DNA from: an uncultured delta proteobacterium
GTDB lineage: Bacteria > Desulfobacterota > RBG-13-43-22
Assembly: GCA_963843145.1 (NCBI GenBank)
Contig: CAWJJC010000027.1
Coordinates: 96,001-160,000, forward strand
Direction of reading: 5' to 3'
DNA: 64,000 nucleotides
Shown here one piece after another: positions 24,039 through 43,452 of the stretch. The first letter of the stretch is position 1, and each line of letters begins with the position of its first letter. Below the pieces are notes generated by a model, which was given only the letters and a program-made list of their open reading frames with translations, ran no database searches and was not told the origin of the DNA. A program made the position numbers and the translations under genes.

Positions 24039-24587
24039 ATGATCTACACAACACCGAAACCGATATGGCCAGTAGCGTTGTTCGCGGCCGTTGTCCTGGC
24101 CCTGCTGGGTATGTACCAGATAGGTTCAGCCGCGAGTATGGACCCTACGGCCAAATGGGCCTGGAGTACGAATGCGAGCTGGATCGATTTCAACCCCACC
24201 GTCGGTGGAGAGGTAGCCGTGTATGGGGATCACCTGGAAGGGTACATCTGGGCCGAGAACGTCGGCTGGATTCGGCTGGGAACTCATACCAGCGGCAGCC
24301 CCTATACCTATGGCAACACCGATGCCACCAATTACGGGGTCAACCGCGATTCCAGTGGCAGTTTGTTAGGCTATGCCTGGGGCGCCAATGTGGGCTGGAT
24401 CAACTTTGCCCCCACCGGAGGCGGGGTGACCATCGACCCGCAGACCGGTGCCTTTGCCGGTTACGCCTGGGGGGAGAACGTGGGCTGGATCAGTCTCAAG
24501 GGGGGCAGCGGACCCACGGCCTACGGGGTGGTCACCGATTTTCGTAATTTCCAAATCTATCTGCCATTGGTTCTGAGACCGTCGTGA
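24039..24587 (+). CDS. exported protein with GYAWGENVGWI repeats and LPL tail
   Basis: Signal peptide; three GY(A/I)WxxNVGWI repeats; ends QIYLPLVLRPS. Confidence 0.85.
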   Translation: MIYTTPKPIWPVALFAAVVLALLGMYQIGSAASMDPTAKWAWSTNASWIDFNPTVGGEVAVYGDHLEGYIWAENVGWIRLGTHTSGSPYTYGNTDATNYGVNRDSSGSLLGYAWGANVGWINFAPTGGGVTIDPQTGAFAGYAWGENVGWISLKGGSGPTAYGVVTDFRNFQIYLPLVLRPS

Positions 24588-24624
24588 GAATTTAGCGGGA
24601 AACACCTATTGAACCACTCAGAGA

Positions 24625-24659
24625 AGAGGGCAGGATTCAGAAATGGCCCTGCCCTCTTT
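24625..24659 (+). terminator. hairpin terminator
   Basis: AAGAGGGCAGG...CCTGCCCTCTTT. Confidence 0.6.
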
Positions 24660-25146
24660 GTACAGTTCGATCGGTAATCGTTATCAAGTTGGCAGGAGAT
24701 TTAAACCATAGGCGGACAAATAAGAGACTCACACCCAAACCCAAAACCCTCGAACTTCAGATAGACTACTCGGATTCCCAGCTTCCTTTCTACGAGGATG
24801 CCTTTGACCTGGATTTTGGGGTTTCCGCGGCTCCATCGGCTCCCTGAGCTAAGAGGTCCGCCGGAGGCCCAGGGTGTATACCATTTTTCGTAGTCGCCCC
24901 CCTCGTTTTCCCTTTTCCCAACAACGGGCAACGTCCAAGCCTCCAACCCCCCTTTTTTTTCGGAAGACCCCCATTGTACCCTTGCTTTGGACCCAATTTT
25001 CTTATTGACCCGGTATTATTATTATTTTAAACTCTTTCCAGCTAAAAGAAACTTCTTATCATTGAGACAGACGAATTCTTCAAGGGGATGAAGGCAATTC
25101 CCACGGAATGCCCATCCCCGATTCTTTCTTACGAGGAGCAAAGGAC

Positions 25147-26234
25147 ATGCGTCACCATCGATTGGCGGATTGGTTCAGATCAAGTTCAGGTTGGGCGCGC
25201 AAGCAAGCCCTCAGGCGCCCGAATCCAATCATGAAAACCGGGCTGCGCGCAGCGATGATTCTACTTACATTCGTCTTGGTACAGAACATGGTACCCGCGC
25301 AGGTCGCGGCGGCTCCCAGTCTTGTGCTAATTGCTCAGAGCGATTCGATGGTGGCGGTGGTTGGAACGACGAACGTGAACGACCAAAATTTCGGGGGAGT
25401 CTCCCTCGCGTGTCCTGCGGGCAAGGTGGCGGTCGGGGGCGGGATAGACCCCAGTAATGTACTCACCGAGTTTGTCACTTCTTCCGGTCCGACGTGGGGG
25501 GGGTAACCGGCTCCTCTTGCAGCCCGTGGGCGCCAATCCGGCTCCCGACGGTTGGGAGGCATACATTAGAAACGACTCTGGCGCCACGGCGCCGGTCAAC
25601 GTCGCCGTGATCTGTGTGACTAGTTCTTCGGTAAGCAGTGTTGTTGGAACGACGAACGTGAACGACGGCGATTATGGTGTGGTTTCCCTCGCCTGCCCTG
25701 CGGGCCAGGTGGCGGTTGGAGGCGGGATAGACCCCAGTAATGTGTTCACCGAGTATGTCACTTCTTCCGGTCCGACGTGGGGGGGTAACCGGCTCCTCAT
25801 GCAACCCGTTGGCGCCAATCCGGCTCCCGACGGTTGGCAGGCAAGCATTTTTAACTTCTCTGGTACCAGGGCGCCGGTCAAGGCCGCCGTCATCTGTGTG
25901 ACTAGTTCCTCGGTAAGCAGTGTCGTTGGAACGGCCAATGCGAACGACCACACTTTTGGTGTGGTTTCCCTCGCATGCCCTGCGGGCCAAGTGGCGGTTG
26001 GCGGCGGGATAGACGCCCAGGGTTTGTTGGAGGAGCATGTCACTTCTTCCGGTCCGACGTGGGGGGGCAACCAGCTCCACTTGCAGCCCGTGGGCGCCAA
26101 TCCGGCTCCGACGGTTGGCAGGCAAGCATTCTCAACGGTCTGCCCCGCCGCCGTTCAACGTCGCCGTGATCTGTATGCCAGCAGCGAATTCGACAGCGGC
26201 GCAATCTATCTTCTTGCCGTTGATCGTGAGATAA
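25147..26234 (+). CDS. exported protein with three about 94-aa Cys-containing repeats and LPL tail (frameshifted)
   Basis: Repeat units start about 25357, 25640, 25922 (SLACPAGxVAVGGGID...AVIC); indels near the G run at 25496-25503 and near 26110; ends SIFLPLIVR. Confidence 0.8.
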
Positions 26235-26308
26235 AGACTGGAGTACCCTTCTGTACAAGATACGGCTGGTAAATGCACGTCTAGACCTTATCTAATGTAC
26301 AAACAACA

Positions 26309-26348
26309 AAAGGAGAGAGAAGATTATGTCTTCTCTCTCCTTTTTTTG
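26309..26348 (+). terminator. intrinsic terminator
   Basis: AAGGAGAGAGAAGA...TCTTCTCTCTCCTT plus T run. Confidence 0.8.
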
Positions 26349-26419
26349 TTTCTTGGAATAGATGAGTGCGACAAGGGTTACTTGCTGTTTGGCGGTTCTG
26401 CCCCCCGTGAGCGTGTCTT

Positions 26420-26650
26420 TTGTTTAGAATAGCTTTGCCAAAAGGTAAAATCACTCCCGATCATATTCACCTGCTGAAATCCTGGAAGCATTTCGGATTC
26501 AGGTCTTTTGCGGCCCCCGCATCCTGCCCAGAAAAAGCTGCCATGGCCTCCGGCTCGTAAAGGCATGCCTACGCCTCGGAGAGAAAACCTGGCCCGCTAT
26601 ATCATCCGGGCTTCTTTCTCTCAGGAACGAATGACCTATCTGCCGGAACC
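26420..26650 (+). mobile_element. IS91-family transposase remnant
   Basis: Broken frames give AKGKITPDHIHLLKSWKH..GF.VFCGPRILP and ENLARYIIRASFSQERMTYLPE, recognisable as IS91-type Y2 transposase segments. Confidence 0.65.
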
Positions 26651-26778
26651 TGTCGAGAGGTAAAGGCAATTTAGGCAGGATGTCGGCGCCTGCTCCCTTG
26701 AATCCTAATTTTTAGGCCTTGGGACGCCAAGGAAAATTTCAATATAAATTCTGCGACGGCTTCTGAAAACCGGGACTT

Positions 26779-27100
26779 ATTAACGGTCTCAAAATAATAT
26801 TGACTGGATTCTTTAACGCTGCCAAGTCACAACCAAAGAAAAAAGACGACCTCTCACAGAGTGCACAGAGATCGCAGAGAAATATTATTTATGATTGCCG
26901 CTGAGAGGCCGGCAATCATAAAAAGTCTCCCGCTCCGCGAATAAGACCCCGCCGGAGGCGTGAGTTGTTTTGAAAAATCGGCGTCTCAGCGATATTTCAA
27001 AAAAGAGATTCGTCTTTCTCTGCGCTCTCGGCGAACTCGAGCGAAGCGGGCGAGAGATAAAAAGAACAACCCGTGTATAGACAATTATGAGACTATTTAA
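26779..27100. mobile_element. MITE-like element (ATTAACGGTCTCA...TGAGACTATTTAA) with internal CACAGAG/CGCAGAG hairpin module
   Basis: Ends resemble 19658-19826 and 40189; internal inverted repeats. Confidence 0.5.
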
Positions 27101-27302
27101 AAGTGTCCTGTTCCTTCTTTCTATAATTCAAACAGCTTTAAACTCAACAGGCGAGCACTGTGCAAGATTCGCAGAATGATGACCCTGGAACAATCGATTC
27201 TGAAAACGGTAACCATAATCGGACGGACGGTCTGGTGCATTTGTCTAAAGGCGAAATATAAATTTTAACTTATTCCGTAAATAGTGTTAGAATGATTTTA
27301 TT

Positions 27303-27896
27303 GTGCGTCATTGGCTGATAACAGCAATCCTTATCTGCCTGTTTTTCCCTGAAACCGGCTGGTCGGACATCTATTACTGGATAGATGGCCAGGGAATTCA
27401 GAACTATACCGGGAACCTGGAGAGCGTTCCCGAAAAGTACCGTTCACAAGCGCAACTGCTTTCTCTTCCGCCGGCGCCGCCGGCTCCCCCTGAACTGGCC
27501 CCGAGCCCACCCAACCGGGGCACGACGAGAATCCCCTTCACCCCCGGCTCTCCTGTTTTGGTGCAAGCCAAAATCAACGGCATCGGACCCATCACGCTTA
27601 TACTGGATACCGGTGCGGAGGGTACTATAATTTCACCTTCGGTCCTGACCCGGTTAGGTCGCGCCCCTGAAAATGGGCCGCCCCTTACCTTGAAAGGCGT
27701 GACGGGAATGGGTTATGCGAGTAGAGTCTGGGTTGATTTCATCGAAGTCGGTGATACCAAAGTAGGTCCCCTGCTGATTGCCGTTTATGAGGCTGACCTG
27801 AGAGGAGCCGAAGGTTTACTGGGCCGGGACTTTCTATCCCACCTAAAGGTAACTATTGACTCCAAGGAAAAAGTGGTTACGCTGTCGCCTAATTGA
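27303..27896 (+). CDS. exported retropepsin-like aspartic protease with N-terminal DUF4124-like domain
   Basis: Signal peptide, IYYWIDGQG..YT, Pro linker, LILDTGA, GLLGRDFL. Confidence 0.85.
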   Translation: MRHWLITAILICLFFPETGWSDIYYWIDGQGIQNYTGNLESVPEKYRSQAQLLSLPPAPPAPPELAPSPPNRGTTRIPFTPGSPVLVQAKINGIGPITLILDTGAEGTIISPSVLTRLGRAPENGPPLTLKGVTGMGYASRVWVDFIEVGDTKVGPLLIAVYEADLRGAEGLLGRDFLSHLKVTIDSKEKVVTLSPN

Positions 27897-28010
27897 GGGC
27901 AGGGGGCAACGAAACGGGAAAAGGACTGTCCGCAAACCGCGGGATCGGCACCCCTTTTTCCGAAAGGTGCATTTCATCTAGCCTTTTATTCTATTGAGGA
28001 GGGAACGAGC

Positions 28011-29054
28011 GTGGAAGAAAAAATGCGTGTCATGAACGAAAAACCGCGCAATGCGGAAACCCCGATTCAATATCTTCGTTCGTGGATTACGGCCAATGCC
28101 GTCTTCTTCGACCGCAATCAGGGTGAAATCCCTGAGAAACCGGTAGCCCTCTCGGAGTGGGAGCTTGTCATCGAGGGGGAAGTGGAAGAGCCTCTCCGCG
28201 TCAATTTCGACCAGATCTACCGAATGCCCAAGACCATCGTCGCGAACACGCTGGAATGTTCAGGAAACAGCCGGTCACTTCTGGAAGAAAAGGCCGCGGG
28301 AAATCCCTGGACCATCGGCGGTGTTGGAAATGCCGTCTGGGGCGGAGTCTGGCTCAGGGATCTTTTAAACCAAAGTGGTTTAAAAAGGGGCGCGCAACAG
28401 GTGGCCTTCGAAGGGTTGGATAAACCCCTGGGCGGCAAACAGGTAAAATTCATCCGCAGCATCCCGATCGAGAAGGCCATGTCATCAACCCTCCTGGCCT
28501 ACGAGATGAACGGCGAACCACTGCCGCTGAAACACGGGTTCCCTTTAAGGGCCCTGGCCTTGGGCTGGACTGGCGCCAACTGTGTGAAGTGGCTTTCCAA
28601 AGTCACGGTCTTGGACCGGCCCTTGGAAGGGTTTTTCATGGACCAAGTCTATCGGGTGTTTCCAAAGGGAGAAGATCCCAAATCCGGTGAGGTGGTAACC
28701 GGCCTGAAACTGAAGTCCATCATCACCCAACCGGTCAAAGGAGAGCACCTTCCCCCGGGGATGGTGACCATCCTGGGAGCGGCCTATGCCGGACCGATCG
28801 ATGTGGAAGGGGTTGACGTGTCGGTGGACGGCGGGCAAACGTGGAACCGGGCCGCCTTTATCGGTCCGCACGAGCCGTTTGCCTGGCGGCAATGGCAGTA
28901 CTTGTGGGAAGTGGATAAAGAGGGCGAATATACCATCATGTCCCGTGCTATTGACGCGGAGGGACGTCAACAGCCCCTGAACGCGCAGTGGAATGTCTTG
29001 GGATACGGCAACAACGGGGTAATGGAGCATGCGGTCACCATGCATATCGTCTGA
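28011..29054 (+). CDS. sulfite oxidase-family molybdopterin oxidoreductase
   Basis: TLECSGNSR, LLAYEMNGEPLPLKHGFPLR, VKWL, dimerisation domain VSVDGGQTW...WN..GY.NN. Confidence 0.9.
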   Translation: MEEKMRVMNEKPRNAETPIQYLRSWITANAVFFDRNQGEIPEKPVALSEWELVIEGEVEEPLRVNFDQIYRMPKTIVANTLECSGNSRSLLEEKAAGNPWTIGGVGNAVWGGVWLRDLLNQSGLKRGAQQVAFEGLDKPLGGKQVKFIRSIPIEKAMSSTLLAYEMNGEPLPLKHGFPLRALALGWTGANCVKWLSKVTVLDRPLEGFFMDQVYRVFPKGEDPKSGEVVTGLKLKSIITQPVKGEHLPPGMVTILGAAYAGPIDVEGVDVSVDGGQTWNRAAFIGPHEPFAWRQWQYLWEVDKEGEYTIMSRAIDAEGRQQPLNAQWNVLGYGNNGVMEHAVTMHIV

Positions 29055-29123
29055 GGGTGCAATTGGAATTTCCTATTGTTCTTTTGCATTCACTAACCGG
29101 GGGCCAACCAAGCTATTCTGCTG

Positions 29124-29918
29124 ATGTCGTCAACGGTAGTCCCGACCAAAACCCAGATGGTCGACAGCGCCGGCGGCCGGAGCCAACTCGCCCAGCTCAC
29201 CACCAGCGGCTTGGTACTCCTGGTGCTTCTCTTCTTGACCGCCCCGCTGGCCTACCTGCCGGAGGCGGTCCTCTCCGCGATCGTCTTTCTCATCGGTCTG
29301 GAACTGATCGATGTCCAAGGTATGCGCAAGATCTTCGCCGAGCGACCCTGGGAGTTTTGGGTAGCGCTGATCACGGCCGCGGTTGTGGTCATTGTGGGGG
29401 TCGAGCAGAGCATTCTCCTGGCGATAGTCTTGTCGCTCGTGGTGCATACGCGCCATGGCTATCAGGTGAACAACATGGTGATTGTTCATGACCAGACACT
29501 CGGCTGGCGGCAGCAGCAGATTAACCTCCCGGAACAGGCCGCACCCGGTCTCATGATTTACCGGTTCATGCACAATATGTACTACGCCAATATCGAGGTA
29601 CTCCATAATGAGGTCGTCGGACTGGCCAGAGGCGCGCAGCCTCCCTTATCATGGTTCTGCATCGATGCCGCGGCGGTCAACGATGTGGACTTCACGGCGG
29701 CCGAAGCATTGCGCTCAATTCACGGCATCCTGAAATCGCTGGGGATCAAACTCGTCTTTTGCCAACTTGTCGAGGAAGTCCGCCGGGAATTTGACCGATC
29801 CCAGCTCACCGAGCTGTTCGGCCGGGATGCTTTTTTTGAAACCCCCAACGCGGTGTTAAACGCCTTTGTCGAGAAGGACCACCTCTGGATCGACAACCGC
29901 GATATAATTACGGAATAA
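29124..29918 (+). pseudogene. SulP-family anion transporter, 5-prime truncated, with STAS domain
   Basis: Starts mid-protein at VNGSPTKT/GGRSQLAQL...PLAYLPEAVLSAIV; STAS DFTAAEAL; N-terminal TM region absent. Confidence 0.8.
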
Positions 29919-29969
29919 TTAGCCTGATAAGGTCAAGTTAGTAGCGGCTGACCTCCCTCTCGCCGGGTT

Positions 29970-30030
29970 CCGGATATAAATACAGTCTTTCCCTTCATAC
30001 AATTACAGCCTTTACCTTATTCTTTTATTT
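29970..30030 (+). promoter_or_regulatory. conserved upstream element with TACAG(T/C)CTTT direct repeats
   Basis: Similar block at 32897-32951; repeats start at 29981 and 30004. Confidence 0.55.
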
Positions 30031-30100
30031 ACTATCTTTAGTTAAATAGTTAAAATTATAATAAAGTTGTTATCCCTGTGGGTAATTGGAGAAATTTAAA

Positions 30101-32616
30101 ATGAAAAAGATCAGGATGTTTAGGGAGGGGATGACCTCTTTTTCGGTGGATTTCAGCCGTAGGACCAGGGCCTCCTCCCGTAGGAGTCTAATCTTCGTAA
30201 TGGCCCCTCTCAGGACGTGTTTGATCGCCTTCAGCCTGATCCTCACCCTGCTTCCAGCGGCGAAAACGTCTGCTCAGCCGGTCCCGGCGCCGGTCGGAAA
30301 CAAAAGTCCAATGACTTCGGCTGAACCCCGGCCGCGATCCCTGGGCGCGGCCGGCTGTCAGTGGACCTACTATCCGATTTCCGGCGGTCAGCTCCAACCG
30401 GAGCAGCCGCTCTTTAACGATCCCGATAATACGCCCCTCATCAATCTGAGCCTGGGCAATATGTTTAAAGGAAAATCCACCCACTTAAACAGCACCGGCT
30501 CAACGGATTTCGACGGCGACAACAAGACCGACGTCTTCCGCACCCTGCCGCGCTCCGACGGCAACCTGCAATGGCAATACTCCAGCGGCGGTGCCGGTCC
30601 CTGGCAGGACCTGGCCTATGCCAGCAATACCCTGCCGGCTTCGGCGTTGCAGTTTGGTGATTTCAATGGCGACAGCAAGACAGATGTCTTCGCCAGCTAT
30701 TATGACACTGCCCCAACCTATCATTGGCTGTACTCCCCCAGCGGGACGGACAGCTTCGTCACCCTGAATACTTCGACTATTCTTCGCGGATCGCCTGGCA
30801 CTCGGCGATTTCAACGGCGACGGCAAAACGGACGTTTTCACCGCCACGCTACAGAACAATGTCTACCAATGGGGCTACTTCCCCGGCGGGAACGGCGGTA
30901 TGGTGCAACTGGCCTTTGCAGCGACCGATCCGTCGTTGCTGCGCTTTGGCGATTTCGACGGCGACGGCAAGACCGACGTTTTCGCGGCTACCCAGCAGGC
31001 CGACGGTTCAACCCAATGGCTGTATTCCAGCGGGGGGGCAACCAGTTACACCAACTCTGACTACGACCACCGTGCCTTACTCGGAGCTGAAATTCGGCGA
31101 CTTCGACGGCGACGGCAAGACCGATGTGCTGGCCGCGCTGCCCCAGGCCGATGGCGGCCTGCAGGTGGTCTACTGGCCGGGCGGGCTCGGCCCGGCGGTC
31201 ACCTTGGGATACATCCCGGCGCCCGCCCCCGCGCTGCGGGTGGGGGACTTCAACGGCGACGGCATCTCCGACCTGCTGGCGCTGCGCTGCGGAATGCCGG
31301 GGCCGCTGGCTTTCGGTCCGCGGCAAACCCTGGCGACGTCCGGTTATGGCACGTTTTATAAGACCCTGACCGGGGACGTCAACGGCGATGGCCGGCCCGA
31401 CGTGATTTTGATCTCGACTTGCCAGAACCCCAACCCCTTTGGAATATGCGCCACCCACCACCTCCAGGTCGGCGTGGCGCTGGGTACGCCCGCCCATACC
31501 GACACCCTGGTGGCGCCGCAGCAGTTGGGGGCCGATAGCCTGGACTTCACCTATTACAAGGTTCTGGCCGGCGATTTCGACGGCGATGGGAAAACCGACC
31601 TGGCGCTGATCAATGGCACTCCCACCAGCCTGACGATCTATGTGGCCCGCTCCAATGGCGATGGGAGTTTCACACTGGGTTCCCCGCAGACCTTCACAGG
31701 AGAAAACTGGTCCATACTTCAACCCCATCGTGGGCGATTTCAACGGCGACGGCAAAGCCGACCTGGCCTTCACGACGGTTTGCAATACGGTTCCTTGCAA
31801 GCCGGCAGTTGTACTGATGGGGATAATAACGCCGTGTATGTGGCCACTTCCACCGGCGCCGGGACCTTTACCCTGGGCGCCCGTCAGGACCTGGGCCCGG
31901 CCAACGGGTGGGTCGACTTCTATGCCTTCGCCGGCGATTTCAACGGCGATGGGAAAACCGACCTGGTCTTCAACTCCACCTGCCAGAAGAAGAATTACAT
32001 CGATCAGCACCTGCACGGTCGGTGATGCCAACTTTGTCTACACGGCGTTATCGACCGGGCTCGGGAGTTTCACCTTGAGTGCGAGGCAGACGTATGGCAG
32101 CTTCGGGCTGGGGAGACTACCCCGTCAGCGTAGATCTGATCGGCGACGTGAACGGCGACGGCCGCAGCGACCTGGTCTGGTCTTCTTCCTATCAATCGGT
32201 CGCTAAGACCAACAATAATCAGGTGGTGGTGGGTTTCGCCAATCCCGACGGGAACCTTCCAGCTCGGGTCCGTTCAAAACTTCGGCAGCGCCTGGACGGG
32301 CAGCCTGACCCTGGCCGACCTCAACCACGATGGCAAGGCCGATCTGATCTGGAATAACGCTCCCTTAGGTGACACGGATGTGGATACCTATGCGGCCGCC
32401 ACGTCGAACGGCGATGGCACGTTCAAGGTCCTGGGACAGGGGGCCGTCTACACCGGCCAGGGGTATTTCCAAATTCCGGAGAGCTTCGACTTCAAAAAGC
32501 CGGTCTCCGGCCTGACGCTCGTGTCCACCCGGCAAAATTCAATCAGCAATGCCCTGTTTGTTGTCCATGGCTTCTTGCCGGGAGGGAATGTTTACCTGCC
32601 TTTAATACGAAAATAG
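30101..32616 (+). CDS. exported FG-GAP/VCBS repeat protein with LPL tail (several frameshifts)
   Basis: More than ten GDF(N/D)GDGK(T/A)D repeats across ORFs 30086, 30900, 30724, 31640, 32079, 32380; ends NVYLPLIRK. Confidence 0.85.
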
Positions 32617-32850
32617 AATCGAGCACCACTTTTTAGGCGTTTTGTTTTTGCCGTCATCCCGGACTCGATCCGGGATCCAGGTGACTCAGGACCTTCACTG
32701 CCCTGGATTCCGACCATTCGACAAAGCTCATGGCCCTGAGTAAGTCGAAGGGCGTTCGCCGGAATGACGACCTAATAAATTGAATAAACATAAATTTCCA
32801 CGCCTCGGGGTACCCGCTCCGGGCTCCGGGTTACGAACGAAAGTGAGCCC
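32611..32850. repeat. REP family B composite repeat
   Basis: AATAGAATCGA then GTCATCCCGG..GGATCCAG / CTGGATTCC..CCGGAATGAC; copies at 19706, 61405, 62828. Confidence 0.8.
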
Positions 32851-32896
32851 CCTTTGAGTCGAACTCTTTTAACCTCCAACTTTAAAGATCAATCCG

Positions 32897-32951
32897 CCCG
32901 GATATACAGTCTTTTCTTTCCTAAAATACATCCTTTACCCCATTCATTTCT
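32897..32951 (+). promoter_or_regulatory. second copy of upstream direct-repeat element
   Basis: CCGGATATACAGTCTTT...TACATCCTTTACC; repeats start at 32905 and 32927. Confidence 0.55.
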
Positions 32952-33116
32952 ACCAGGTAATGATTTAAACTAATAATGACATTAAGTCTGCCCTTTTCAG
33001 AAGTGCGGACTTAACCTTACCCCCCCACTAAGTCATTTGGGGACGTCCCAAAATCTCGTGCTTGGGATTTCCCAATCACCATAAAGCCCACAGGTTTAGG
33101 AATGAAAGGAGAAGAA

Positions 33117-34349
33117 ATGGAAGCCAATCCGTTGATTAAACACCGGTTGTCCGCTAGCCGGCGAGTTCTCCTTTTGCTGGGGACGCTGCTGGCCGGTAAT
33201 TTTTATGTACTTCCTCTGCAGGCGGCCGGGGTGGTCGGCTGCGGCACGCCGGCGAGTTGCACCGAATCGGCCTTCGATACCGCCTTGACCGGCGGCGGCA
33301 GCGTTTCTTTTAATTGCGGCGGTTTGGCGACCATAGCCTTGACCTTTTACAAGCAGATTTCCGTTGACACCACCATTGATGGCGGCGGGAAGATTACCTT
33401 GAACGCCCCGAATACCTACTTCTTCCAGGTTTATGGCGCCAACTCCCTGACCTTGCAGAACATTATCCTGGCCAACGGTTCTTCCAGCATCGCCGGGGCC
33501 ATTGAAAACTTTGGAACGACCACGATTGAAAAGAGTCAATTAGTGAACAACCATTCAAGCAACCATGCCGGCGCCATTGTTAATTACGGCCACTTGGTAC
33601 TGACCGGCAGCACCTTAGCGAACAATCAAGCCGTCAACGGTGGGGGTGCCGTTTATAACGATAGCGGGACGGTGGAGGTGACCGACAGCCTGTTTACGGG
33701 CAACAAGGTCACCGGGCTAACCGGCAAAGGCGGGGCCATCGCGAACATTGGCGGCACCATCACTTTAAACCGGGTAGCCCTGACCGACAATTCGGCGGTC
33801 GACGCCGGGGGCGGGATTTACAGCCTCGATTCCCTCACCCTCACCAATGTGACCCTCAGCGGCAATCAATCCACCACGAATGGCGGCGGCGGGATTTACC
33901 AAGGAAACCACATCGGGTCGCTGAACTTTGTGACGGTGGTCGGCAATAGTGGTACTTTCGGGGCGGGGGTTTACAACGATGGGTCTCTGGGTTCGCTGTT
34001 CCTTCAAAACACGCTCCTTTCGAACAACGCCGGGGGGAACTGTGACGGTGTGATAAACTCGAGCGGGCATAACCTCTCCAGCGACAATAACTGTGGCTCC
34101 GCGTTTACCCAGTCGGGCGACAAGAACAATACCCCGGCCCTCTTGGGATCCCTGGCCGATAATGGCGGCCGGACGCTAACCTACATGCCCCTGCCCCCCA
34201 GCCCGGCCCGTGATGGCGGGCAATGTGTGGTCGGCGTGACCGTGGATCAACGCGGCGCTTTACGACCGGTCGGGGCGGCTTGTGATATAGGAGCGGCGGA
34301 ATACGGGGGCATATTACCGAGGTTGTATTTGCCCCTGATGAAACGCTAA
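33117..34349 (+). CDS. exported GGAI beta-helix protein with choice-of-anchor Q-like domain and LPL tail
   Basis: VVGCGTPASCT N-terminus, GGAI/GGGIY repeats, DQRG..R...CDIGAAE, ends LYLPLMKR. Confidence 0.88.
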   Translation: MEANPLIKHRLSASRRVLLLLGTLLAGNFYVLPLQAAGVVGCGTPASCTESAFDTALTGGGSVSFNCGGLATIALTFYKQISVDTTIDGGGKITLNAPNTYFFQVYGANSLTLQNIILANGSSSIAGAIENFGTTTIEKSQLVNNHSSNHAGAIVNYGHLVLTGSTLANNQAVNGGGAVYNDSGTVEVTDSLFTGNKVTGLTGKGGAIANIGGTITLNRVALTDNSAVDAGGGIYSLDSLTLTNVTLSGNQSTTNGGGGIYQGNHIGSLNFVTVVGNSGTFGAGVYNDGSLGSLFLQNTLLSNNAGGNCDGVINSSGHNLSSDNNCGSAFTQSGDKNNTPALLGSLADNGGRTLTYMPLPPSPARDGGQCVVGVTVDQRGALRPVGAACDIGAAEYGGILPRLYLPLMKR

Positions 34350-34391
34350 AGGGTTGTATTTGGTGCGTTTTCAAAAAGTTCAAAAAACCTG

Positions 34392-34486
34392 TCATTGCGA
34401 CCCCGGTCTAGTTCCGGGGGAAGCTTTTCTCTGCCATGGTATCTAGCTGATTCTTGGAGATCGCTTTGTCGCTTGACTCCTCGTAA
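34392..34486. repeat. REP family A, degenerate copy
   Basis: GTCATTGCGACCCCGG...TAGCTGATTCTTGG...CTCCTCGTAAT. Confidence 0.65.
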
Positions 34487-34534
34487 TTCAGCCAATATTA
34501 TTTTTAGACCATCAATAAGACTGGAGGGAAAAAG

Positions 34535-36178
34535 ATGGAAACCAGGGCCTTCAGATTCCAAGTGCTAATCATAGTTGGATTGATCGTGGCCACGCTTTGG
34601 TCCACCCCTTCCCTCCAGGCCGCCTCCAACGTCAAATTGAGCGGCGTCATGCCCTCCTTCGGGGACGTTAATTCATTCCAGATCAGTCCGGACGGCCGGT
34701 ATGCCGTCTATCTGGCAGATCAGGACACGGTTGGAGTAAATGAGCTTTACAGCGTCTTGTTAGGAGGGGGCTCCCCCATTCGATTGAATCCCCTTCTTCC
34801 CTCCGGTAGAACCGTTATTTCGTTTTCGATCAGCCCGGACAGCAGCCGGGTGGTATATGTGGCCAACCAAGATACGGCTATGGTCCCAGAACTTTACAGC
34901 GTCCCCATCGGGGGTCCGGCAGCGGCAGTGACCAAGCTTAACGGGGCCGTGGTGGCCGGCGGGAATGTGAGTGCCTACTTTCTGATCAGCCCGGACAGCA
35001 GTCGGGTGGTTTATCGGGCCAACCAACAGACGGCATCTGTCGCTGAATTATACAGCGCCCCCATCGGGGGTCCGGCGGGGTCCGAGGTCAAGCTCAACGG
35101 GGCCCTGGTGGCCGGCGGGAATGTGACTTTCTTTCAGGTCAGCCCGGACAGCAGCCGGGTGGTTTATCTGGCCGACCAACAGATGGATAATGTGGTTGAA
35201 TTGCACAGCGTCCCCATCGGGGGTCCGGCGGGGTCTGGAGTCAAGCTCAACGGGGCCCTGGTGGCCGGCGGGAATGTACTTACCTTTCAGCTCAGTCCGG
35301 ATAGCAGACGGGTGGTTTATGTGGCCAACCAAGATACGGCTACCGTCATTGAATTATACAGCGTCCCCATCGGGGGGCCGGCGGGGTCCGGGGTCAAGCT
35401 CAACGGGGCCCTGGTGGCCGGCGGGAATGTGAATGGCTTCTTTCAGATCAGCCCGGACAGCAGCCAGGTGGTTTATCGGGCCGACCAACAGACGGATAAT
35501 GTCACTGAATTGTACAGCGTCCCCATTGGAGGTCCGGCGGCGGCCGGGATCAAGCTCAACGGGGCCTTGGTGGCCCTCGGGAGTGTTTATAACTTTCAGA
35601 TCAGCCCGGATAGCAGCCGGGTGGTTTATCGGGCCAACCAACATACGGCTACTGTCTTTGAACTTTACAGCGTCCCGATCGGAGGTCCAGCGGCGGCCGG
35701 GATCAAGCTCAACGGGGCCTTGGTGGCCCTCGGGAGTGTTTATAACTTTCAGATCAGCCCGGATAGCAGCCGGGTGGTTTATCGGGCCAACCAAGATACG
35801 GCTACTGTCTTTGAACTTTACAGCGTCCCCATCGGGGGTCCGGCGGGGTCCGGGGTCAAGATCAACGGGGCCCTGGTGGCCCTCGGGAATGTTAATACCT
35901 TTCAGTTCAGTCCGGACAGCAGCCGGGTGGTTTATCAGGCCGACCAAGATACGGCTACTGTCTTTGAACTTTACAGCGTCCCGATCGGAGGTCCAGCGGC
36001 GGCCGGAATCAAGCTCAACGGGGCCCTGGTGGCCAGCGGAAATGTGGGTCTTTTTCAGATCAGTCCGGACAACGGTCGGGTACTTTATGTGGCCGACCAG
36101 GACACAAACGATGTCTTTGAACTCTATATGACGTCCAATTATTTACTCCACTTGCCTCTTATTCTGAGGCAGGGCTAA
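34535..36178 (+). CDS. exported beta-propeller protein (ten about 51-aa FQISPDSSRVVY...ELYSV repeats) with LPL tail
   Basis: Signal peptide; 10 TolB/PD40-like repeats, near-identical at DNA level; ends LLHLPLILRQG. Confidence 0.88.
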   Translation: METRAFRFQVLIIVGLIVATLWSTPSLQAASNVKLSGVMPSFGDVNSFQISPDGRYAVYLADQDTVGVNELYSVLLGGGSPIRLNPLLPSGRTVISFSISPDSSRVVYVANQDTAMVPELYSVPIGGPAAAVTKLNGAVVAGGNVSAYFLISPDSSRVVYRANQQTASVAELYSAPIGGPAGSEVKLNGALVAGGNVTFFQVSPDSSRVVYLADQQMDNVVELHSVPIGGPAGSGVKLNGALVAGGNVLTFQLSPDSRRVVYVANQDTATVIELYSVPIGGPAGSGVKLNGALVAGGNVNGFFQISPDSSQVVYRADQQTDNVTELYSVPIGGPAAAGIKLNGALVALGSVYNFQISPDSSRVVYRANQHTATVFELYSVPIGGPAAAGIKLNGALVALGSVYNFQISPDSSRVVYRANQDTATVFELYSVPIGGPAGSGVKINGALVALGNVNTFQFSPDSSRVVYQADQDTATVFELYSVPIGGPAAAGIKLNGALVASGNVGLFQISPDNGRVLYVADQDTNDVFELYMTSNYLLHLPLILRQG

Positions 36179-36265
36179 CAGGAGATAACCTGTTTGAAAA
36201 TATTAGTTTAATACTGGTCAATTCGGTTAAATCGGCAATCACCCAAATACCAGGAGGAGAAAGTA

Positions 36266-38043
36266 ATGGAAAAACAAGGAGCAAAAGGAAAAAAAGTTCT
36301 TCGATGGATTGCAGGGGGTCTTATTTTGATGTTGGGCAACTTCTTCCTGGATGGCAGACCTTCAGGCCGCCGGCACGGTCGGTACCGGGACTTCGGCCAG
36401 TTGCACCCAATTAGCGCTCACAACGGCCCTGACCGGGGGCGGCACGGTTACCTTCAACTGTGGAGGCGCCGGAGACAATTCTGGTTATCCCCAGCCGGAT
36501 GAACATTACAGCGGACACGGTTATTAAAGGCGGAGGGGTGATCACCCTCAGCGGCGGGTTAAACAACGGCCTGTTTTACGTGATGGCCCCGGCCTCCTTG
36601 ACGCTGAACGATATTACTCTCGATAGCGCTTATGCCGCCACGGATGGGGACGGCGGTGCCATTCGGGCCAGCGGCCCATTGACGCTGGATAATGTTACCA
36701 TTCAAAATAGCCAGACCACCGACGTTTATTGCGGAGGAGCGATCTGGTCCAATGGGGAGGTCAACATTTCCAACAGCCTCTTTAAGAACAATACAGGCGG
36801 AAATGGCGGGGCGATCTGCACCGGGCAATTTGACACAACCCGGTTGCAGGTCACCAACAGCGGTTTCAGCAATAACCAGGCCGTCTCAACCGTCAATGGC
36901 TTTGGCGGCGCGATCTTTGTAGCCGGTTCGGTGGCGGAGGTGACGATCGCTGACAGCGGTTTTACCGGCAACACTGCCCGCTTCGGCGGTGCGCTGGCCG
37001 TTTATACGGGTGGAACCGCGACTATCCGCGGGGCAAGCCCCCTGAATCCCGTCTCTTTCATCAGCAATTCGGCTACGCAGGAGGGCGGCGCGATCTGGAG
37101 TCAGGGTACGCTGAAGGTTTATAATGGTAACTTTTTAACGAACAAAGTTCCTTTAAACGTCGCGGGCTATGGCGGCGGTATCGCCAGTTACGGCGGCGTG
37201 ACACTTTGGGACAGTTCCTTCGTCTTCAACGAGGGTCGTTACGGCGCCGGGCTCTTTGTCGGCAATAAAGCGAGCGGCTCAGCGGCGGACGTGCGACGAA
37301 CGCTTTTCAATCTGGGTAATGCTTTGGAAGGCGGCGGTATCTATACTAACGACACCAACGCGTTCGTCACCGTCTCGGATAGCGTATTTAGTAGTAATAC
37401 CGCCGCCGAGGGCGGCGGACTGGCGCGCTTTAACTCGAGGGTGGACATATCGAATTCGTCGTTTACGGACAATGCATCTACAAATGATGGTGGTGGTCTA
37501 TGGATCACACACGGTCCCGCCAACACCCAAGACCCTAGCTTTGTGAGCCTGACTAGCGTGACCATCGGCCGGAACACGGCGAACCCCGGTCTTAAACACG
37601 GCGGTGGTTACTATAATCAGGGCATTAGCGTGTTGACAAACGTCACGATCAAAGACAACACGAATGGCATTTATAATACCGGGTTGTCTCAACTGAATAT
37701 TTACAACACCGTATTGGACAATCCGAATTCGCTCAATTGCGATGGCGGCACGCCTCTCACCTTGGGCGGTCACAATCTGTCTACGGACATGAGTTGCGGG
37801 GTTGAACAGAACAATGTAACTGTCCAGCTCTTCGGTCCACCGGCCCTCAATACCAATGGCATTAATCAAACCCTCTATTACCCGCCGCTGGCGGGCAGCC
37901 CGTTGATCAATGGGGCCGCCAATTCCCAAAATTGTCCAATGTTGGACCAGCGCGGGGCCGTCCGTCCTGATGCCTGCGACATCGGAGCGGTTGAATATGG
38001 CGGACTGGCCTGGAGCACCTTCCTCCCGCTTATCAAAAGATGA
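36266..38043 (+). CDS. exported GGAI beta-helix protein with LPL tail (frameshifts near 5-prime end)
   Basis: Signal in ORF 36266, TVGTGTSASC, GGAI repeats, LDQRGAVRPDACDIGAVE, ends STFLPLIKR. Confidence 0.85.
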
Positions 38044-38132
38044 GGAAAAATCCAAAAAGGTTTAGATTATATGGTAACCATTTTGGTGAGAGTGGAAATG
38101 ACATAAAACCGACATCCAGGAGGGAAAGAACT

Positions 38133-39988
38133 ATGAAATTGCAATCATCATTAAATAAAAAGGTCTTTCGATGGGCAGTAGGGGGTCTGTTTTTAATGTT
38201 GGGCATCATCTTGGGCATCACGTCGCTTCAGGCCGCCGGTACGGTCGGTACCGGGACTTCGGCCAGTTGCAACCAAGCGGCGCTCACAACGGCCCTGACC
38301 GGGGGCGGGACGGTTACCTTCAACTGTGGAGGGACATTGGCCACCATTCCGTCATCAGCCAGATCCCCATCACCCAGGACACGGTCATTGAAGGAGGCAA
38401 CCTGGTCAAGATCGACGGTGGGCTGGTCACCCGTTTCTTTGATATCCCCGGTTCCCAGACGTCTCTGACCTTAAAAGACATTATCCTCGCCAGTGGCTAC
38501 AGCAGGGAAGCGGGGGCGGCAACGGCGGAGCCATCCGGAGCGCGGGGACGCTGACACTCAATAACGTCACCATTCAATTCTGCCAAACCAAGGGGTACGG
38601 GGGAGCGGTCTATTCCAGTGGCCCCATGATCGTCTCCAACAGCACCTTTAACGATAACACCTCGACCTCGTCCGGCGGGGCGATCTATTCCGAAGGGACT
38701 TTGACTGTCTCCCAAAGCACCTTTGACAAGAACACAGGAGTCATCGCCGGCGGGGCGATCTGCACCGGAGTGCCGCCTTCCAACCGATTGCAGGTCACCA
38801 ACAGCACCTTCACCAACAACAAGACCACCGATGCCACCTACGGCTATGGCGGTGCGATCTTTGTGAGCGGACCGATAGCGGAGGCGACCATCATTGACAG
38901 TTTTTTCCGACAGCAATTCTGCAAAGTTAGGTGGCGGGCTGACCGTTTGGACCGGTGGCACGGCCACGCTCCGCACCCAGAATCCCTCCATCCGAAATGC
39001 ATTTCTAGTCAACTCCGCCACCCAAGACGGCGGGGCGATTTATAATGTGGGGACACTGGACATTTACGGGGCGGATCTGAACAATAACACGGCGCCTCAA
39101 AACACCGGCGGGATAGGCCACGGCGGTGCGATCGCCAATACCGGCAATCTGAAGCTTTACGATAGTCAATTGACCTTCAACAAGGGGCGTTTTGGCGGTG
39201 CGCTTTTTGTCGGCATTATCCCAAGCGCCCAGGCGGATGTGCAGACGAACAATTTTCAGTGGCAACGATGCGAGTGAATTCGGCGGCGGTCTCTGTACTG
39301 GCGATGCCCTATTTAATACCGGTGCAACCGTTACCGTGACCGACAGTGTGTTTCGTAACAATACGGCGGTGGTCAACGGCGGGGGAGCGTATCGCTTCAA
39401 CGCGCTTCTGGAAATTTCTAATTCGTCATTCACGGACAACCAGGCTGGCAGGAGTCGGAGGCGGCTTATATAGCGGAGCCAGCGTTCCGGACCCCGCCCG
39501 GTAAACGCCACGAGCGTGACCTTTGGCGGGAACACGGCGGGCAGCGGTCATGGCGGCGGCATTTATACCTCGGGCTACAGCACCTTGAAAAACCTCACCA
39601 TCAAAGACAACACCAACGGTCTGTTCAATGCCGGCAACTTCGTGACGACCCATTTGGGAAACAGCATTCTGGAAAATCCGGGATTCCTCAATTGTGACGG
39701 CGGCGGCGTACCGATCAGCCTGGATGGGCACAATCTTTCCTCCGACAGCAGTTGCGCGGTGGAAACAAATGGGACGCCCGCTCAGCTCGGTCCCCGAGTG
39801 ATTAATGCCAATGGCATCAATGTAACCCGTTATTACCCGCCGCTGGCCGGCAGCCCCCTGATCAACCGGCGGCCGGTTGTCCCACCCTGGATCAACGCGG
39901 CGCCTCGCGGCCTGACGCCTGCGACATTGGCGCGGTTGAATACGGCGGGCTGGCTTGGAGCACATTCCTCCCTCTTATCAGAAAATGA
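38133..39988 (+). CDS. paralogous GGAI beta-helix protein with LPL tail (multiple frameshifts)
   Basis: 5-prime block near-identical to 36361-36465; GGAI repeats across ORFs 38040-39516; last frame TGG AGC ACA TTC CTC CCT CTT ATC AGA AAA TGA = WSTFLPLIRK. Confidence 0.8.
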
Positions 39989-40029
39989 TGAGCGGCCGAA
40001 AGCGTCCAAGCGGATACCATTCCATTATT

Positions 40030-40182
40030 GATGGATTCGCAAAAAGTCCCCAGCGCTGTCATTGCGAGGAGTGAAGCGACGAAGCAATCCCCAAGAATCA
40101 GCTAGTTACCATGGTGGGGATTGCTTCCCCCGGATCAAGTCCGGGGTCGCAATGACAGGTTTTTGGATTTTTTGCGAGGTTG
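40030..40182. repeat. REP family A inside GATGGATTCGCAAAAAGTCC...GGATTTTTTGCGAGG inverted flanks
   Basis: Full palindrome at 40058-40156 plus outer inverted ends. Confidence 0.8.
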
Positions 40183-40333
40183 TCCATTATTAACGGTCTC
40201 ACAACTAAAACAACCTTCATGCCAGTACACAGATTAATCTTGGACCCCGGCCATTCGACAAAGCTCATGCCCCTTCGGCAGGGCTTCGGCGAGATCAGTC
40301 GAGTCGCTCAAGGCCATGAGCTTTGTCAAAAGT

Positions 40334-40461
40334 ATTTATGAATTGTATGGTGTTCCCCTGGGGGGACCGGCAGCGTCTGGATTCAAGTTGAACGGTATCC
40401 TGACCCCCGTATGACCTCCGAATATTTGCTCCACCTGCCTCTGATTCTGAGGCAGCAATAA
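40334..40461 (+). pseudogene. remnant of ELYSV beta-propeller gene retaining LPL tail
   Basis: IYELYGVPLGGPAASGFKLNG then MTSEYLLHLPLILRQQ-stop, paralogous to the end of 34535..36178. Confidence 0.75.
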
Positions 40462-40642
40462 AAGGAAGCGAAATAACCATGGGCCGTTTGATTTATTGAT
40501 CGTTTGCGGGATTATGCTGGCTACGCTGGCGCCGATAAACGTGGTGGCCAATACCTACGTCGTGAACAGCCCCGCCGATCCGGCTGTGACCCGGACATTC
40601 AACGTTTCAAGCAATTTGTTCCTGCCACTGATCCTTAAGTAG
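40458..40642 (+). pseudogene. mini-gene: signal peptide, ANTYVVNSPAD and LPL tail
   Basis: Frame KRKRNNHGPFDLLIVCGIMLATLAPINVVANTYVVNSPADPAVTRTFNVSSNLFLPLILK-stop; start codon not intact. Confidence 0.65.
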
Positions 40643-40662
40643 AAAGAAAGGATATTTCCATT

Positions 40663-40974
40663 ATGGAATTCGCCCTGCTGCTTCTGGTCTATGGATTGTG
40701 CATCGCGCTCACCAGTGTCCTCTGGGCGTACCCGGCGGCCTTGACGGGTTGCTACGTTCTCGTCAGCATCCTCACGCTGATCAAATGGCACACCAGGGCC
40801 GACGTGGTCTCCTTCGCCGCTGCTGCCATTCTTGGACCCTTGGGCGAGGCGGTTGCCGTTCACTCTGGGGCCTGGACCTATACGAAATCCAGCTTCTTGA
40901 TTCCCCTGTGGCTACCTCTGCTGTGGGGAGTTGCCGGCTTGTTTCTGAGAAGAATTGCCTGGATTATGAGTTGA
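40663..40974 (+). CDS. small integral membrane protein (DUF2878-like)
   Basis: About four TM segments; LGPLGEAVAVHSGAWTY...PLWLPLLWG. Confidence 0.7.
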   Translation: MEFALLLLVYGLCIALTSVLWAYPAALTGCYVLVSILTLIKWHTRADVVSFAAAAILGPLGEAVAVHSGAWTYTKSSFLIPLWLPLLWGVAGLFLRRIAWIMS

Positions 40975-41046
40975 AAACCACTTTCGTAGCTCCCAACCAG
41001 ACAGCTCTGGAGCAGATCTTAGCTTCGAAGAGCGGCAGGAGGAAAA

Positions 41047-41496
41047 ATGCGTAAACCATTTATGAGGGAAATTTTATTGCTGATGCTGTTGGGCGGGTTG
41101 GTCCTGTTTGGGCAGCGGGTTTCCGCCACGATCACTTCGCTGCCCATGTCCAATCCCTTTTGTTTTCAGCCCGATCCTTCAGTCAACCAGTGTTTGATCA
41201 ATGTCCGTTCCTGGCAGGCGAACGATAACGGGGTGGGGAACATCTTGGCCTATGTCAATTTTTCGATCGACAATAAACTGCGTTACCGGTCAAACGCGTT
41301 TTTTGAGAATAATATCGCCTACAGCTTTGACATGATCCCCGGGGGAATCAAGGTGACCTGTGGGTTACCCAACGAAGGTGGGTTCGGATCGTTGTACGGC
41401 AAGGCCTATACCGTCGATGTCAAGGCCTATGATATCACCAACACTTGGGTCCTCGACGATCAATTGCAAGTAAAATGCCCCGCTTACAATCCTTAA
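41047..41496 (+). CDS. exported Cys-containing hypothetical protein, no LPL tail
   Basis: Signal peptide, MSNPFCFQ...MIPGGIKVTCG...CPAYNP; RBS AGGAGG. Confidence 0.8.
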   Translation: MRKPFMREILLLMLLGGLVLFGQRVSATITSLPMSNPFCFQPDPSVNQCLINVRSWQANDNGVGNILAYVNFSIDNKLRYRSNAFFENNIAYSFDMIPGGIKVTCGLPNEGGFGSLYGKAYTVDVKAYDITNTWVLDDQLQVKCPAYNP

Positions 41497-41975
41497 GCAT
41501 AAGCGCAGATCGCCAGCGGCTTCGGCGAACCTTTTTTCTATGGCTTGGCCTGATCACGGTCTTGCCGTTTCCCGGCGAGCTCGCCCAGGCCGCTTCGGTC
41601 ACCGTCCAGATGAGTAACCCGTCCTGTGTTCAGGTCCTCCCGGCGGACGGGACGTGTTCGATTCAGGTGGGCAACGTGATTGCCTCCGGCAGCGACCAAA
41701 CCTTTTCGCGGCTCGAAGTCCTGATGAACGGCAAGTTGCGAATTTACATGGGCGGCTTCTTTGAAGCGTCAGCCGATCTCACCCACTCTATGGTGCCGGG
41801 CGGCCTGTCCGTTGCCTGCGGCAGGCCAAACGATGGTGGGTTGGCCAACTACGGCAGGTCGTATTTATTAACGGCGAACGCCTATATGGGGGATGGTACT
41901 TCGGCTTCCTCTTCCACGACTGTTTTCTGCCCGGCTTACGATGGGAAGACCTTTCTTCCGTTAATTGAAAAATAG
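41475..41975 (+). CDS. paralog of the upstream protein, with LPL tail
   Basis: MSNPSCVQ...MVPGGLSVACG...CPAYDGKTFLPLIEK; start uncertain. Confidence 0.78.
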   Translation: MPRLQSLSISADRQRLRRTFFLWLGLITVLPFPGELAQAASVTVQMSNPSCVQVLPADGTCSIQVGNVIASGSDQTFSRLEVLMNGKLRIYMGGFFEASADLTHSMVPGGLSVACGRPNDGGLANYGRSYLLTANAYMGDGTSASSSTTVFCPAYDGKTFLPLIEK

Positions 41976-43439: not shown

Positions 43440-43452
43440 TCCGGAAAATTTT

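Follow-up and report, generated by a model that had tools for sequence, protein, structure and literature searches.

Ten genes or gene remnants in a 64-kb stretch of DNA from an uncultured delta proteobacterium end in the same short peptide, a C-terminal tail of the form [YFH]LPL[IVM]x[KR] that appears to behave like a sorting tag on exported proteins. The stretch, hereafter the window, is G000:C27:96001-160000, where G000 is the host genome, and feature positions are given in window numbering. Genomes possess the tag in bulk or not at all, and this is so in two distant phyla, that of the host and the Chloroflexota. Two NCBIfam models already describe it, NF050076 (sort_motif_YLP, 11 positions) and NF053834 (ultrashort_CTERM, 10 positions), both under the name 'YLP-box putative sorting motif-containing protein', so the motif was known to curators and the present finding is a set of new members. 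The original prediction, made from the letters of the window, had proposed that the ten tails mark a sorting or surface-display system housed in one island of genes. As regards a C-terminal tag on exported proteins the proposal is borne out, but the motif was already catalogued and the island is not special, tails being spread over at least 12 contigs of G000 that include its three largest. Nor is the motif confined to the island when other genomes are considered, since three genera of the host family and the Chloroflexota carry it.

The tail, its cargo and its distribution

The host genome comprises 5.35 Mb in 32 contigs, with a completeness of 97.9% and a contamination of 6.9%. When the core [YFH]LPL[IVML] was searched in all six frames it was found exactly 10 times in the window, always on the + strand, and each core continues as x[KR] and meets a stop 0-3 residues later, with letters and end coordinates exactly as first listed. 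Across G000 the same search returned 192 cores, 43 of them exactly 2 residues from a stop and 79 within 6. In a crude gene set of 3953 genes of at least 150 residues the tail ends 31 genes, compared with about 0.48 expected from the rate of the motif elsewhere in the same genes. A signal-peptide-like N-terminus, called by a simple home-made heuristic, is present in 18 of these 31 and in 844 of the 3922 others (odds ratio 5.0, Fisher p = 1.2e-5), which upholds the proposed enrichment among signal-peptide proteins. The 13 tail genes that have no such start are mostly fragments at contig ends or frameshifted. One of these 13, a cytoplasmic-looking protein of 532 residues that ends FLPLIQEIYL, is probably a chance match.

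The 49 G000 tails with an open frame of at least 40 codons were used to draw a logo of the motif. L-P-L is invariant (49 of 49). It is preceded by an aromatic residue or histidine (Y 24, F 21, H 4), before which L, I or V stands in 40 of the tails, and it is followed by I (41), V (4), M (3) or L (1), then by a variable residue and by a single basic residue near the tail end (K 22, R 21). The consensus is [LIV]-[YFH]-L-P-L-[IVM]-x-[KR] with 0-4 further residues, and the stop is reached 2-6 residues past L-P-L without a hydrophobic segment long enough for a transmembrane helix. The 15-nt cores of the 49 tails are encoded in 45 different ways, with use of all six leucine and all four proline codons, and the DNA 3′ of the stops is unrelated between tail genes. 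These varied codings and unrelated downstream sequences argue for selection on the peptide and not on a DNA repeat.

Both NCBIfam models match the window tails, aligning to their final 10-11 residues. Scanned over its last 40 residues, the protein at 24039-24587 passes both curated cut-offs (NF050076, 16.7 bits against 15; NF053834, 14.7 bits against 10), and whole proteins give borderline values (14.1 against 15 and 13 against 10, respectively). With the last 40 residues of 41 G000 tails as queries, NF050076 matches 15 and NF053834 matches 13 at E <= 1. A curated cut-off passed, together with a position at the very end of many proteins of one genome that are unrelated to one another, identifies the window tails as YLP boxes. 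The models name only a putative motif, so the tail does match a sorting model in the catalogue but none with characterised machinery. Literature searches found no paper on the YLP-box motif. Among the matches listed for 'choice-of-anchor', none concerns this tail, and of those listed for five-letter strings of the motif, most deal with antimicrobial or venom peptides and none with the sorting of bacterial proteins; FLPLI and FLPLV are met there mainly in papers on temporin and crabrolin, short membrane-active animal peptides, a coincidence of letters and not homology. The available text of a 2023 preprint that reviews orphan sorting signals (10.1101/2023.06.07.544157) has no mention of 'YLP' or 'Chloroflex'. 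The earlier statement that no machinery is established for such tails fits the 'putative' label and the lack of papers, but the motif itself cannot be called unrecognised.

The proteins that bear the tail have bodies of different folds, as had been proposed. Propeller repeats of the FG-GAP and PD40 types occur among the cargo; other bodies are RCC1, BNR/sortilin, DUF7948 with SBBP repeats, PMP-repeat beta-helices with a choice-of-anchor Q domain, DUF4394/DUF6923, a calcineurin-like phosphoesterase and LamG, and several small tail proteins belong to no Pfam family. A pair of neighbouring paralogues in the window reveals how the tail is joined to its body. The proteins at 41047-41496 and 41445-41975 share 32% identity over 148 residues (BLASTP, E 6e-21), and the alignment ends at CPAYN/CPAYD, after which the first closes as CPAYNP and the second runs on as CPAYDGKTFLPLIEK. 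In the beta-helix proteins, similarly, the tail begins within about ten residues of the end of the choice-of-anchor Q domain. The tail is, as these alignments read, a modular add-on to a folded body.

Two cargo families allow the tail to be compared with what occupies the same slot in relatives. A scan of species-representative genomes for choice-of-anchor Q domains gave 80 loci, in which the sequence after the conserved DIGAVEY was read. A YLP-type end (LYLPLVVR, VFLPLMIK, SYLPIVKK, LYLPVIIR, IFMPLVKR) closes 19 of the 80, and by record label 16 of these are Chloroflexota, one is an unlabelled bacterium and two come from the record of an uncultured delta proteobacterium. Elsewhere the domain is followed by a PEP-CTERM-like domain (L021), by a hydrophobic stretch with a basic end (L072), by an Asp-rich module with a terminal Cys (L026, L041), or, at four gammaproteobacterial loci, by short I-F-x-N/D-G-F ends, and many other loci extend into long further domains. 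The second family is that of the tail-bearing phosphoesterase C13:11469-12377 of G000. Among its 120 best relatives in a large protein collection, a loose YLP motif lies within the last 22 residues of 34, where about 0.016 is expected per protein, and stands at the very end in 23 of those 34; Pro/Thr-rich linkers precede the tail in several. The type IX secretion (T9SS) C-terminal domain PF18962 is found on 24 of the 120, including the closest relatives that have no YLP motif (54-62% identity), and one relative, P0112, is named a PEP-CTERM protein by NCBI. Since the tail exchanges with established anchors on conserved bodies, it is most simply taken as another anchor or sorting signal.

Genome counts were made with DNA patterns and a reversed control because the NF050076 model is too short for this purpose, and a six-frame genome scan with it also gives matches in 11 of 14 control genomes. 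The samples were 21 genomes of the host family (genera g1, g112, g113, and g2 with 14 genomes), 150 genomes of the host phylum other than G000 and 201 genomes of Chloroflexota. A tight pattern, [YF]LPL[IVM]x[KRQHNS]-stop, matches G000 37 times against 1 for its reversal and gives at most 6 matches in each of the 150 phylum-mates, no more than their own controls, although being tuned to L-P-L it undercounts genomes that use L-P-I, L-P-V or L-P-A. With a looser pattern the matches and controls are 39/4, 34/1, 17/5 and 14/3 in four g1 genomes, 15/5 and 4/1 in g112 (the latter in a genome that is 76% complete) and 12/7 in g113, and 12 g2 genomes are at control level. In all, the tag was not found above control in the 14 g2 genomes or in 146 sampled genomes of the phylum's other families. 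A DNA search with the island (23001-43000) agrees with these counts, in that its tail genes match g1, g112 and g113 only and its matches in g2 consist of short repeats and non-tail genes (a retropepsin-like protease, a molybdopterin oxidoreductase and a SulP fragment). In Chloroflexota, 13 of the 201 genomes have at least 10 matches with controls of at most 4, and most others (about 150) have 0-2. One of the 13, G247, is a single 2.57-Mb contig that was compared whole with G000. In it 20 motifs stand exactly 2 residues from a stop, and about 11 of its tail proteins, which have signal-peptide-like starts, are convincing. The strong excess in these 13 genomes, with the 16 Chloroflexota among the 19 YLP-ended loci, bears out the statement in the original prediction that similar tails are common on secreted proteins of that phylum. 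Two loci, L036 and L025, bear the names Litorilinea aerophila and Thermoflexus, of both of which there are cultured strains that may carry the tail.

The two phyla differ in the presence of BamA. G000 encodes BamA (680 bits), in agreement with the proposal that the host is diderm, and a second Omp85-family gene that adjoins a 1311-residue open reading frame (ORF); these two presumably form an ordinary TamA/TamB pair. In the eight tag-bearing Chloroflexota genomes searched there was no BamA match (0/8). The tag therefore cannot depend on the beta-barrel assembly machinery (BAM), and it is not limited to one envelope type. The claim that the tail is no BAM beta-signal holds on these grounds and also by the tail's own end, which is K/R or a short polar extension.

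Readings of the tail

We are somewhat inclined to read the tail as a tag for sorting or retention whose action requires a partner specific to the lineage, of a type that has so far not been associated with protein sorting. Cargo would first be exported by Sec through an ordinary signal peptide. A partner confined to tag-bearing lineages would then recognise the tag, either on the outer side of the cytoplasmic membrane or within the wall or periplasm, and recognition would keep the cargo, namely adhesin-like beta-helices, beta-propellers and a phosphatase, on the cell envelope. That the tag is found on ten or more unrelated cargo families within a lineage, and leaves no trace in sister genomes, speaks for such a partner. 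Because the tag is found both in a diderm that contains BamA and in Chloroflexota that have no BamA match, the partner cannot be the outer-membrane insertion machinery; and because no known sorting-enzyme family tracks the tag, it probably belongs to a type for which a role in sorting has yet to be described.

The known families were examined one by one. None of the sortase, exosortase, CPBP or rhomboid families shares the distribution of the tag. Sortase (PF04203) is found in none of the 21 host-family genomes and not in G247, though it is in four of five tag-rich Chloroflexota. Exosortase (PF09721) is present in G000 and G156 and not in G157, G158, G160 or G161, and it occurs in 3 of the 14 tag-free g2 genomes and in none of five tag-rich Chloroflexota. 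CPBP (PF02517) has no match in G000, G160, G138 or G164. The rhomboid of G000 is a single copy, and each of two tag-free g2 genomes tested has one as well. A Ste24-like M48 peptidase common to G000 and G247 is present in five of six other tag-bearing family genomes (none in G159) and has strong matches in 12 of the 14 tag-free g2 genomes. The retropepsin-like protease at 27303-27896 occurs in G000, G158 and G161, yet tag-free G163, G170 and G171 have it as well, and it is missing from tag-bearing G156, G157 and G160.

Neighbourhoods gave no better candidate. The ORFs of 17 stretches of G000 and of 80 external loci were clustered, and the families that recur near tails are parts of branched-chain amino-acid ATP-binding cassette (ABC) transporters, GGDEF/PAS sensors, histidine kinases and phage-type integrases, none of them machinery-like. 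Comparison of the external flanks with all G000 ORFs by BLAST yielded nothing further. G000 and G247 share 858 proteins, of which 233 show features of membrane proteins or signals; the two best-looking shared genes beside the tail cluster of contig C20 read, from their sequences, as a metal-ion transporter and a major facilitator superfamily (MFS) transporter. The tail neighbours in G247 include cohesin/dockerin proteins, an MFS transporter and CofD. At G247:C1:1794689-1801519 (L202, L203) three cohesin-domain proteins, one of which has a dockerin match, and a 664-residue ORF lie between a tail gene and a gene that ends FMPLIQ, a gene set that suggests a surface assembly. At G247:C1:643618-652857 (L145) three tandem tail genes lie between ORFs whose best G000 matches have 63% and 51% identity, together with one of 52%; we take the first two to be gap and pgk and the third to be tpiA.

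Several observations weigh against a dedicated partner. No non-cargo family recurs beside tail genes in the 17 G000 stretches and 19 external loci, and the genes that lie near tails in both G000 and G247 are for the most part generic ABC ATPases, the rest being a few shared genes without annotation. According to the available text of the 2023 preprint, a transmembrane helix and an Arg cluster hold the substrates for every characterised sorting enzyme (10.1101/2023.06.07.544157), and the YLP tail has neither. A lineage-specific expansion of cargo that was imported with its tails, with no partner involved, could also give the all-or-none pattern. Cargo is often strain-specific, and since the phosphoesterase was not found in the other 20 genomes of the host family, G000 being alone among the 21, cargo does arrive by transfer. 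Several tail genes of the window are frameshifted or reduced to remnants, which fits a decaying set as well as assembly errors. The heuristic behind the signal-peptide enrichment also counts membrane proteins.

The best-surviving alternative, which we consider rather unlikely, is that the tail is a self-sufficient anchor, a hook of hydrophobic residues (L-Y/F-L-P-L-I-L) closed by Lys or Arg, which would insert in the outer leaflet of the cytoplasmic membrane or bind a wall polymer directly. The idea of a hook was suggested by the FLPLI and FLPLV strings of temporin and crabrolin, coincidental as that likeness is. Machinery was not found by any approach, the tag occurs in two very different envelope types, a variable extension of 0-4 residues past the basic residue is tolerated, and the near equality of K and R is what would be expected if charge and not a covalent Lys link were required. 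However, 7-8 residues with a central proline are, as a general-knowledge estimate, too few for stable monomeric membrane binding, and the invariant L-P-L and sharply conserved distance to the stop look like recognition by a binding site. A partner-free anchor should moreover appear sporadically in many genomes, whereas the 14 g2 genomes and the 146 of other families are at control level and sister genera have 12-39 matches.

It is very unlikely that the tail is instead a signal for export across the outer membrane of the diderm host, comparable to that of T9SS, and not an anchor. Such a role would account for BamA and a second Omp85-family gene in the host, for PF18962 in the same slot on phosphoesterase relatives, and for beta-helix cargo that has no autotransporter barrel. 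That absence had been proposed and is confirmed by family searches, which return no barrel family (NCBIfam for 33102-34349 and 36460-38043, Pfam for the paralogues at L001 and L007) and only choice-of-anchor Q and POMP/PMP-repeat matches. An export role is difficult to reconcile with a tag that is common in Chloroflexota, where all eight genomes searched have no BamA match, and the second Omp85-family gene of the host is presumably just the TamA partner of an ordinary TamA/TamB pair. We give equally little credence to the tail as a site for a C-terminal processing or quality-control protease (PDZ-type, tail-specific or Ste24-like) that would govern maturation or turnover and not location. The motif does lie close to the free C-terminus, and the Ste24-like M48 peptidase and rhomboids are common to G000 and G247, but the Ste24-like gene is strong in most tag-free g2 genomes, the single G000 rhomboid has g2 counterparts, and a tag for degradation should not trade places with PEP-CTERM, T9SS and dockerin-like anchors on shared bodies. 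That the tail is an artefact, either a chance match or a repeated DNA element landed at gene 3′ ends, has practically no chance of being correct, for although gene remnants and several short repeats in multiple copies occur in the island, the codings vary, the downstream DNA is unrelated, the reversed control is far below the forward count, and distant phyla retain the tail on homologous and unrelated proteins alike.

Returning to a sorting tag with a lineage-specific partner, its consequences concern both mechanism and annotation. The choice of proteins shown on a bacterial surface is made by C-terminal sorting signals, and the enzymes found for earlier signals (sortase, exosortase, archaeosortase, rhombosortase, myxosortase) each founded a line of research. 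The YLP box has its catalogue entry but is an orphan, and it breaks the rule of motif, helix and Arg cluster; a dedicated reader, if it exists, must capture a soluble 8-residue C-terminus, which would be a new mechanism. What is new here is that a lineage with BamA carries the tag, that anchor exchange is seen in a second cargo family, that four enzyme classes are excluded, and that two contrast sets are at hand for a partner search. These sets (g1, g112 and g113 against g2; 13 rich against about 150 empty Chloroflexota) should let the reader be identified. With the tag, surface proteins would also be better predicted for Chloroflexota, a phylum abundant in soils, sediments and wastewater.

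The island in the window

The features of the island are collected below.

Features of the island in window numbering, with the ends of the tail-bearing proteins
Position	Strand	Feature	Basis or remark
22828..23844	+	Lcl C-terminal (DUF1566) membrane-anchored protein, no tail	Pfam PF07603, 89.7 bits
24039..24587	+	Intact 182-residue exported protein, GW-type repeats, ends IYLPLVLRPS	No Pfam family
25108..26234	+	Exported protein, three internal repeats, ends IFLPLIVR	Split over three frames
26770..27106	.	Multi-copy repeat of ~330 bp, like a miniature transposable element	DNA search
30086..32616	+	FG-GAP repeat protein, frameshifted, ends VYLPLIRK	Pfam FG-GAP_3, FG-GAP
33102..34349	+	Intact beta-helix, choice-of-anchor Q domain directly before LYLPLMKR	NF041518, 66.1 bits, residues 347-401 of 415
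34535..36178	+	Intact PD40 repeat protein, ends LHLPLILRQG	Pfam PD40; paralogues on C28, C15, C2
36266..38043	+	Beta-helix with choice-of-anchor Q, one frameshift near the 5′ end, ends TFLPLIKR	NF041518, 47.5 bits; POMP repeat
38040..39988	+	Paralogue of 36266-38043, split over several frames, ends TFLPLIRK	Frames and tail read
40342..40461	+	3′ remnant of a PD40-type tail gene, ends LHLPLILRQQ	39-codon open frame
40496..40642	+	3′ remnant, ends LFLPLILK	48-residue ORF
41047..41496	+	Tail-less paralogue of 41445-41975, ends CPAYNP	BLASTP
41445..41975	+	Intact 176-residue exported protein, ends CPAYDGKTFLPLIEK	Tail is a 10-residue add-on
~24664-25061, 26441-26648, 40023-40206, 34372-34487	.	Other short multi-copy repeats	DNA search

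The eight full-length tail genes of the island had been predicted to start with signal peptides, and all keep a signal-peptide-like start, four in intact genes and four in genes split between frames. Frameshifts thus affect four of the eight, and where an intact orthologue allows comparison they consist of single extra bases. The gene at 25108-26234 is covered by ORFs 25108-25506, 25457-26272 and 26037-26234 in different frames, and in that at 36266-38043 the signal-peptide ORF 36266-36502 lies in another frame than the rest. The FG-GAP gene at 30086-32616 carries at least five extra single bases compared with its orthologue in G157, which is 87% identical in DNA, has one frame of 844 codons from stop to stop and ends IYLPLIRK. 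The paralogue at 38040-39988 has a counterpart stretch in G156:C26 that is 73-79% identical. In these four genes the frameshifts reflect either gene decay or assembly error.

Other tail genes of the island have relatives that keep the tail. The end LHLPLILRQQ is also that of a PD40-type paralogue on C28, the end of the remnant at 40496-40642 resembles that of the 785-residue protein C28:8079-10436, and the orthologue of 41445-41975 at L019/L112 ends TFLPLIQR. Orthologues of the 182-residue protein share 77-85% identity at four other loci with the tail kept, and retain it in three genera. An AlphaFold2 model of this family built from 5 sequences has a mean predicted local distance difference test (pLDDT) value of 31.9, too low for the model to be of use, and Chloroflexota are the commonest source of a cluster of look-alikes found with a language model (score 0.97, 66 members). 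The gene for the 182-residue protein and the Lcl_C gene are adjacent in G156, G157, G159, G160 and G161 with 70-89% nucleotide identity and differing flanks, and the pair spans three genera (L103-L107; L005:4018-5532), with some copies broken. It could be a small mobile or co-selected two-gene module. As general machinery for the tag it fails, since the pair is limited to the host family: neither gene was found in Chloroflexota G152-G154 or in G155, and the Lcl_C gene is absent from G247 by BLAST.

The short repeats (~110-400 bp) have many copies of 75-97% identity in G000 and in the host family, tag-free g2 included, and the element at 40023-40206 matches that at 34372-34487 in inverted orientation. 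A DUF2878-like membrane ORF at 40663-40974 has a match below the Pfam cut-off. Small overlapping ORFs at 43155-44030 are presumably toxin-antitoxin pairs (AbrB-type antitoxin, ParE/RelE-like toxin, Phd/YefM-like antitoxin). Phage-type integrase genes lie beside three other tail-gene clusters of G000 (L003:11285-12001, L005:14448-15287, L009:7113-8006). Outside the island, the 350-residue ORF at 11880-12932 on the - strand has no Pfam family at E <= 0.001, and its earlier description as an outer-membrane barrel was not supported.

Relation to known sorting systems

Among known systems PEP-CTERM with exosortase behaves alike, being a C-terminal tag on many unrelated Sec-exported surface proteins that is present in bulk or absent per genome. 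It also takes the same slot as the YLP tail, after choice-of-anchor Q at L021 and on the phosphoesterase relative P0112. It differs in having a transmembrane helix and an Arg cluster, neither of which is found in the YLP tail. G000 itself has one exosortase gene (C3:5079-5615, L101) and about three PEP-CTERM-like ORFs (C3/C4), so two C-terminal tag systems coexist in this genome. LPXTG with sortase is similar in its short L-P signature near the C-terminus of exported surface proteins, but the YLP tail has no T-G, membrane anchor or charged tail. With no membrane-spanning segment and only one basic residue, K or R, the tail belongs to neither LPXTG, PEP-CTERM nor GlyGly-CTERM, and the earlier exclusion of these three classes for want of a transmembrane helix is upheld.

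The T9SS C-terminal domain takes the YLP slot on the closest non-YLP phosphoesterase relatives, but it is a folded, Pfam-detectable domain and the YLP tail is an 8-residue peptide; PF18962 was found on none of 16 tail proteins of the window or genome scanned with Pfam. Autotransporters (type V) have a C-terminal beta-barrel, whereas YLP beta-helix proteins end in choice-of-anchor Q and the tail. The BAM beta-signal has a terminal aromatic residue and depends on BamA, and the YLP tail has neither property.

Quite possibly, although we propose it tentatively, the YLP box is a further class of C-terminal sorting signal and the first to have no membrane-spanning helix, with a reader unrelated to sortases, exosortases/archaeosortases, rhombosortases and CPBP, that moves horizontally with its cargo between BamA-less Chloroflexota and BamA-bearing diderms. 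In the available text of the 2023 preprint, LPXTG, PEP-CTERM, PGF-CTERM, GlyGly-CTERM and MYXO-CTERM are tripartite, with a motif, a helix and an Arg cluster, and GlyGly-CTERM and MYXO-CTERM, the latter with related Cys-containing signals, were orphan signals that were defined computationally and later assigned intramembrane proteases (10.1101/2023.06.07.544157). The YLP tail shares with this class a signature near the C-terminus of exported proteins and departs from it in having no segment of transmembrane length, no terminal basic cluster and no co-distributed enzyme. In its history, by comparison, the YLP tag now stands at the orphan stage that was once held by MYXO-CTERM (CPBP 'myxosortases') and GlyGly-CTERM (rhombosortase).

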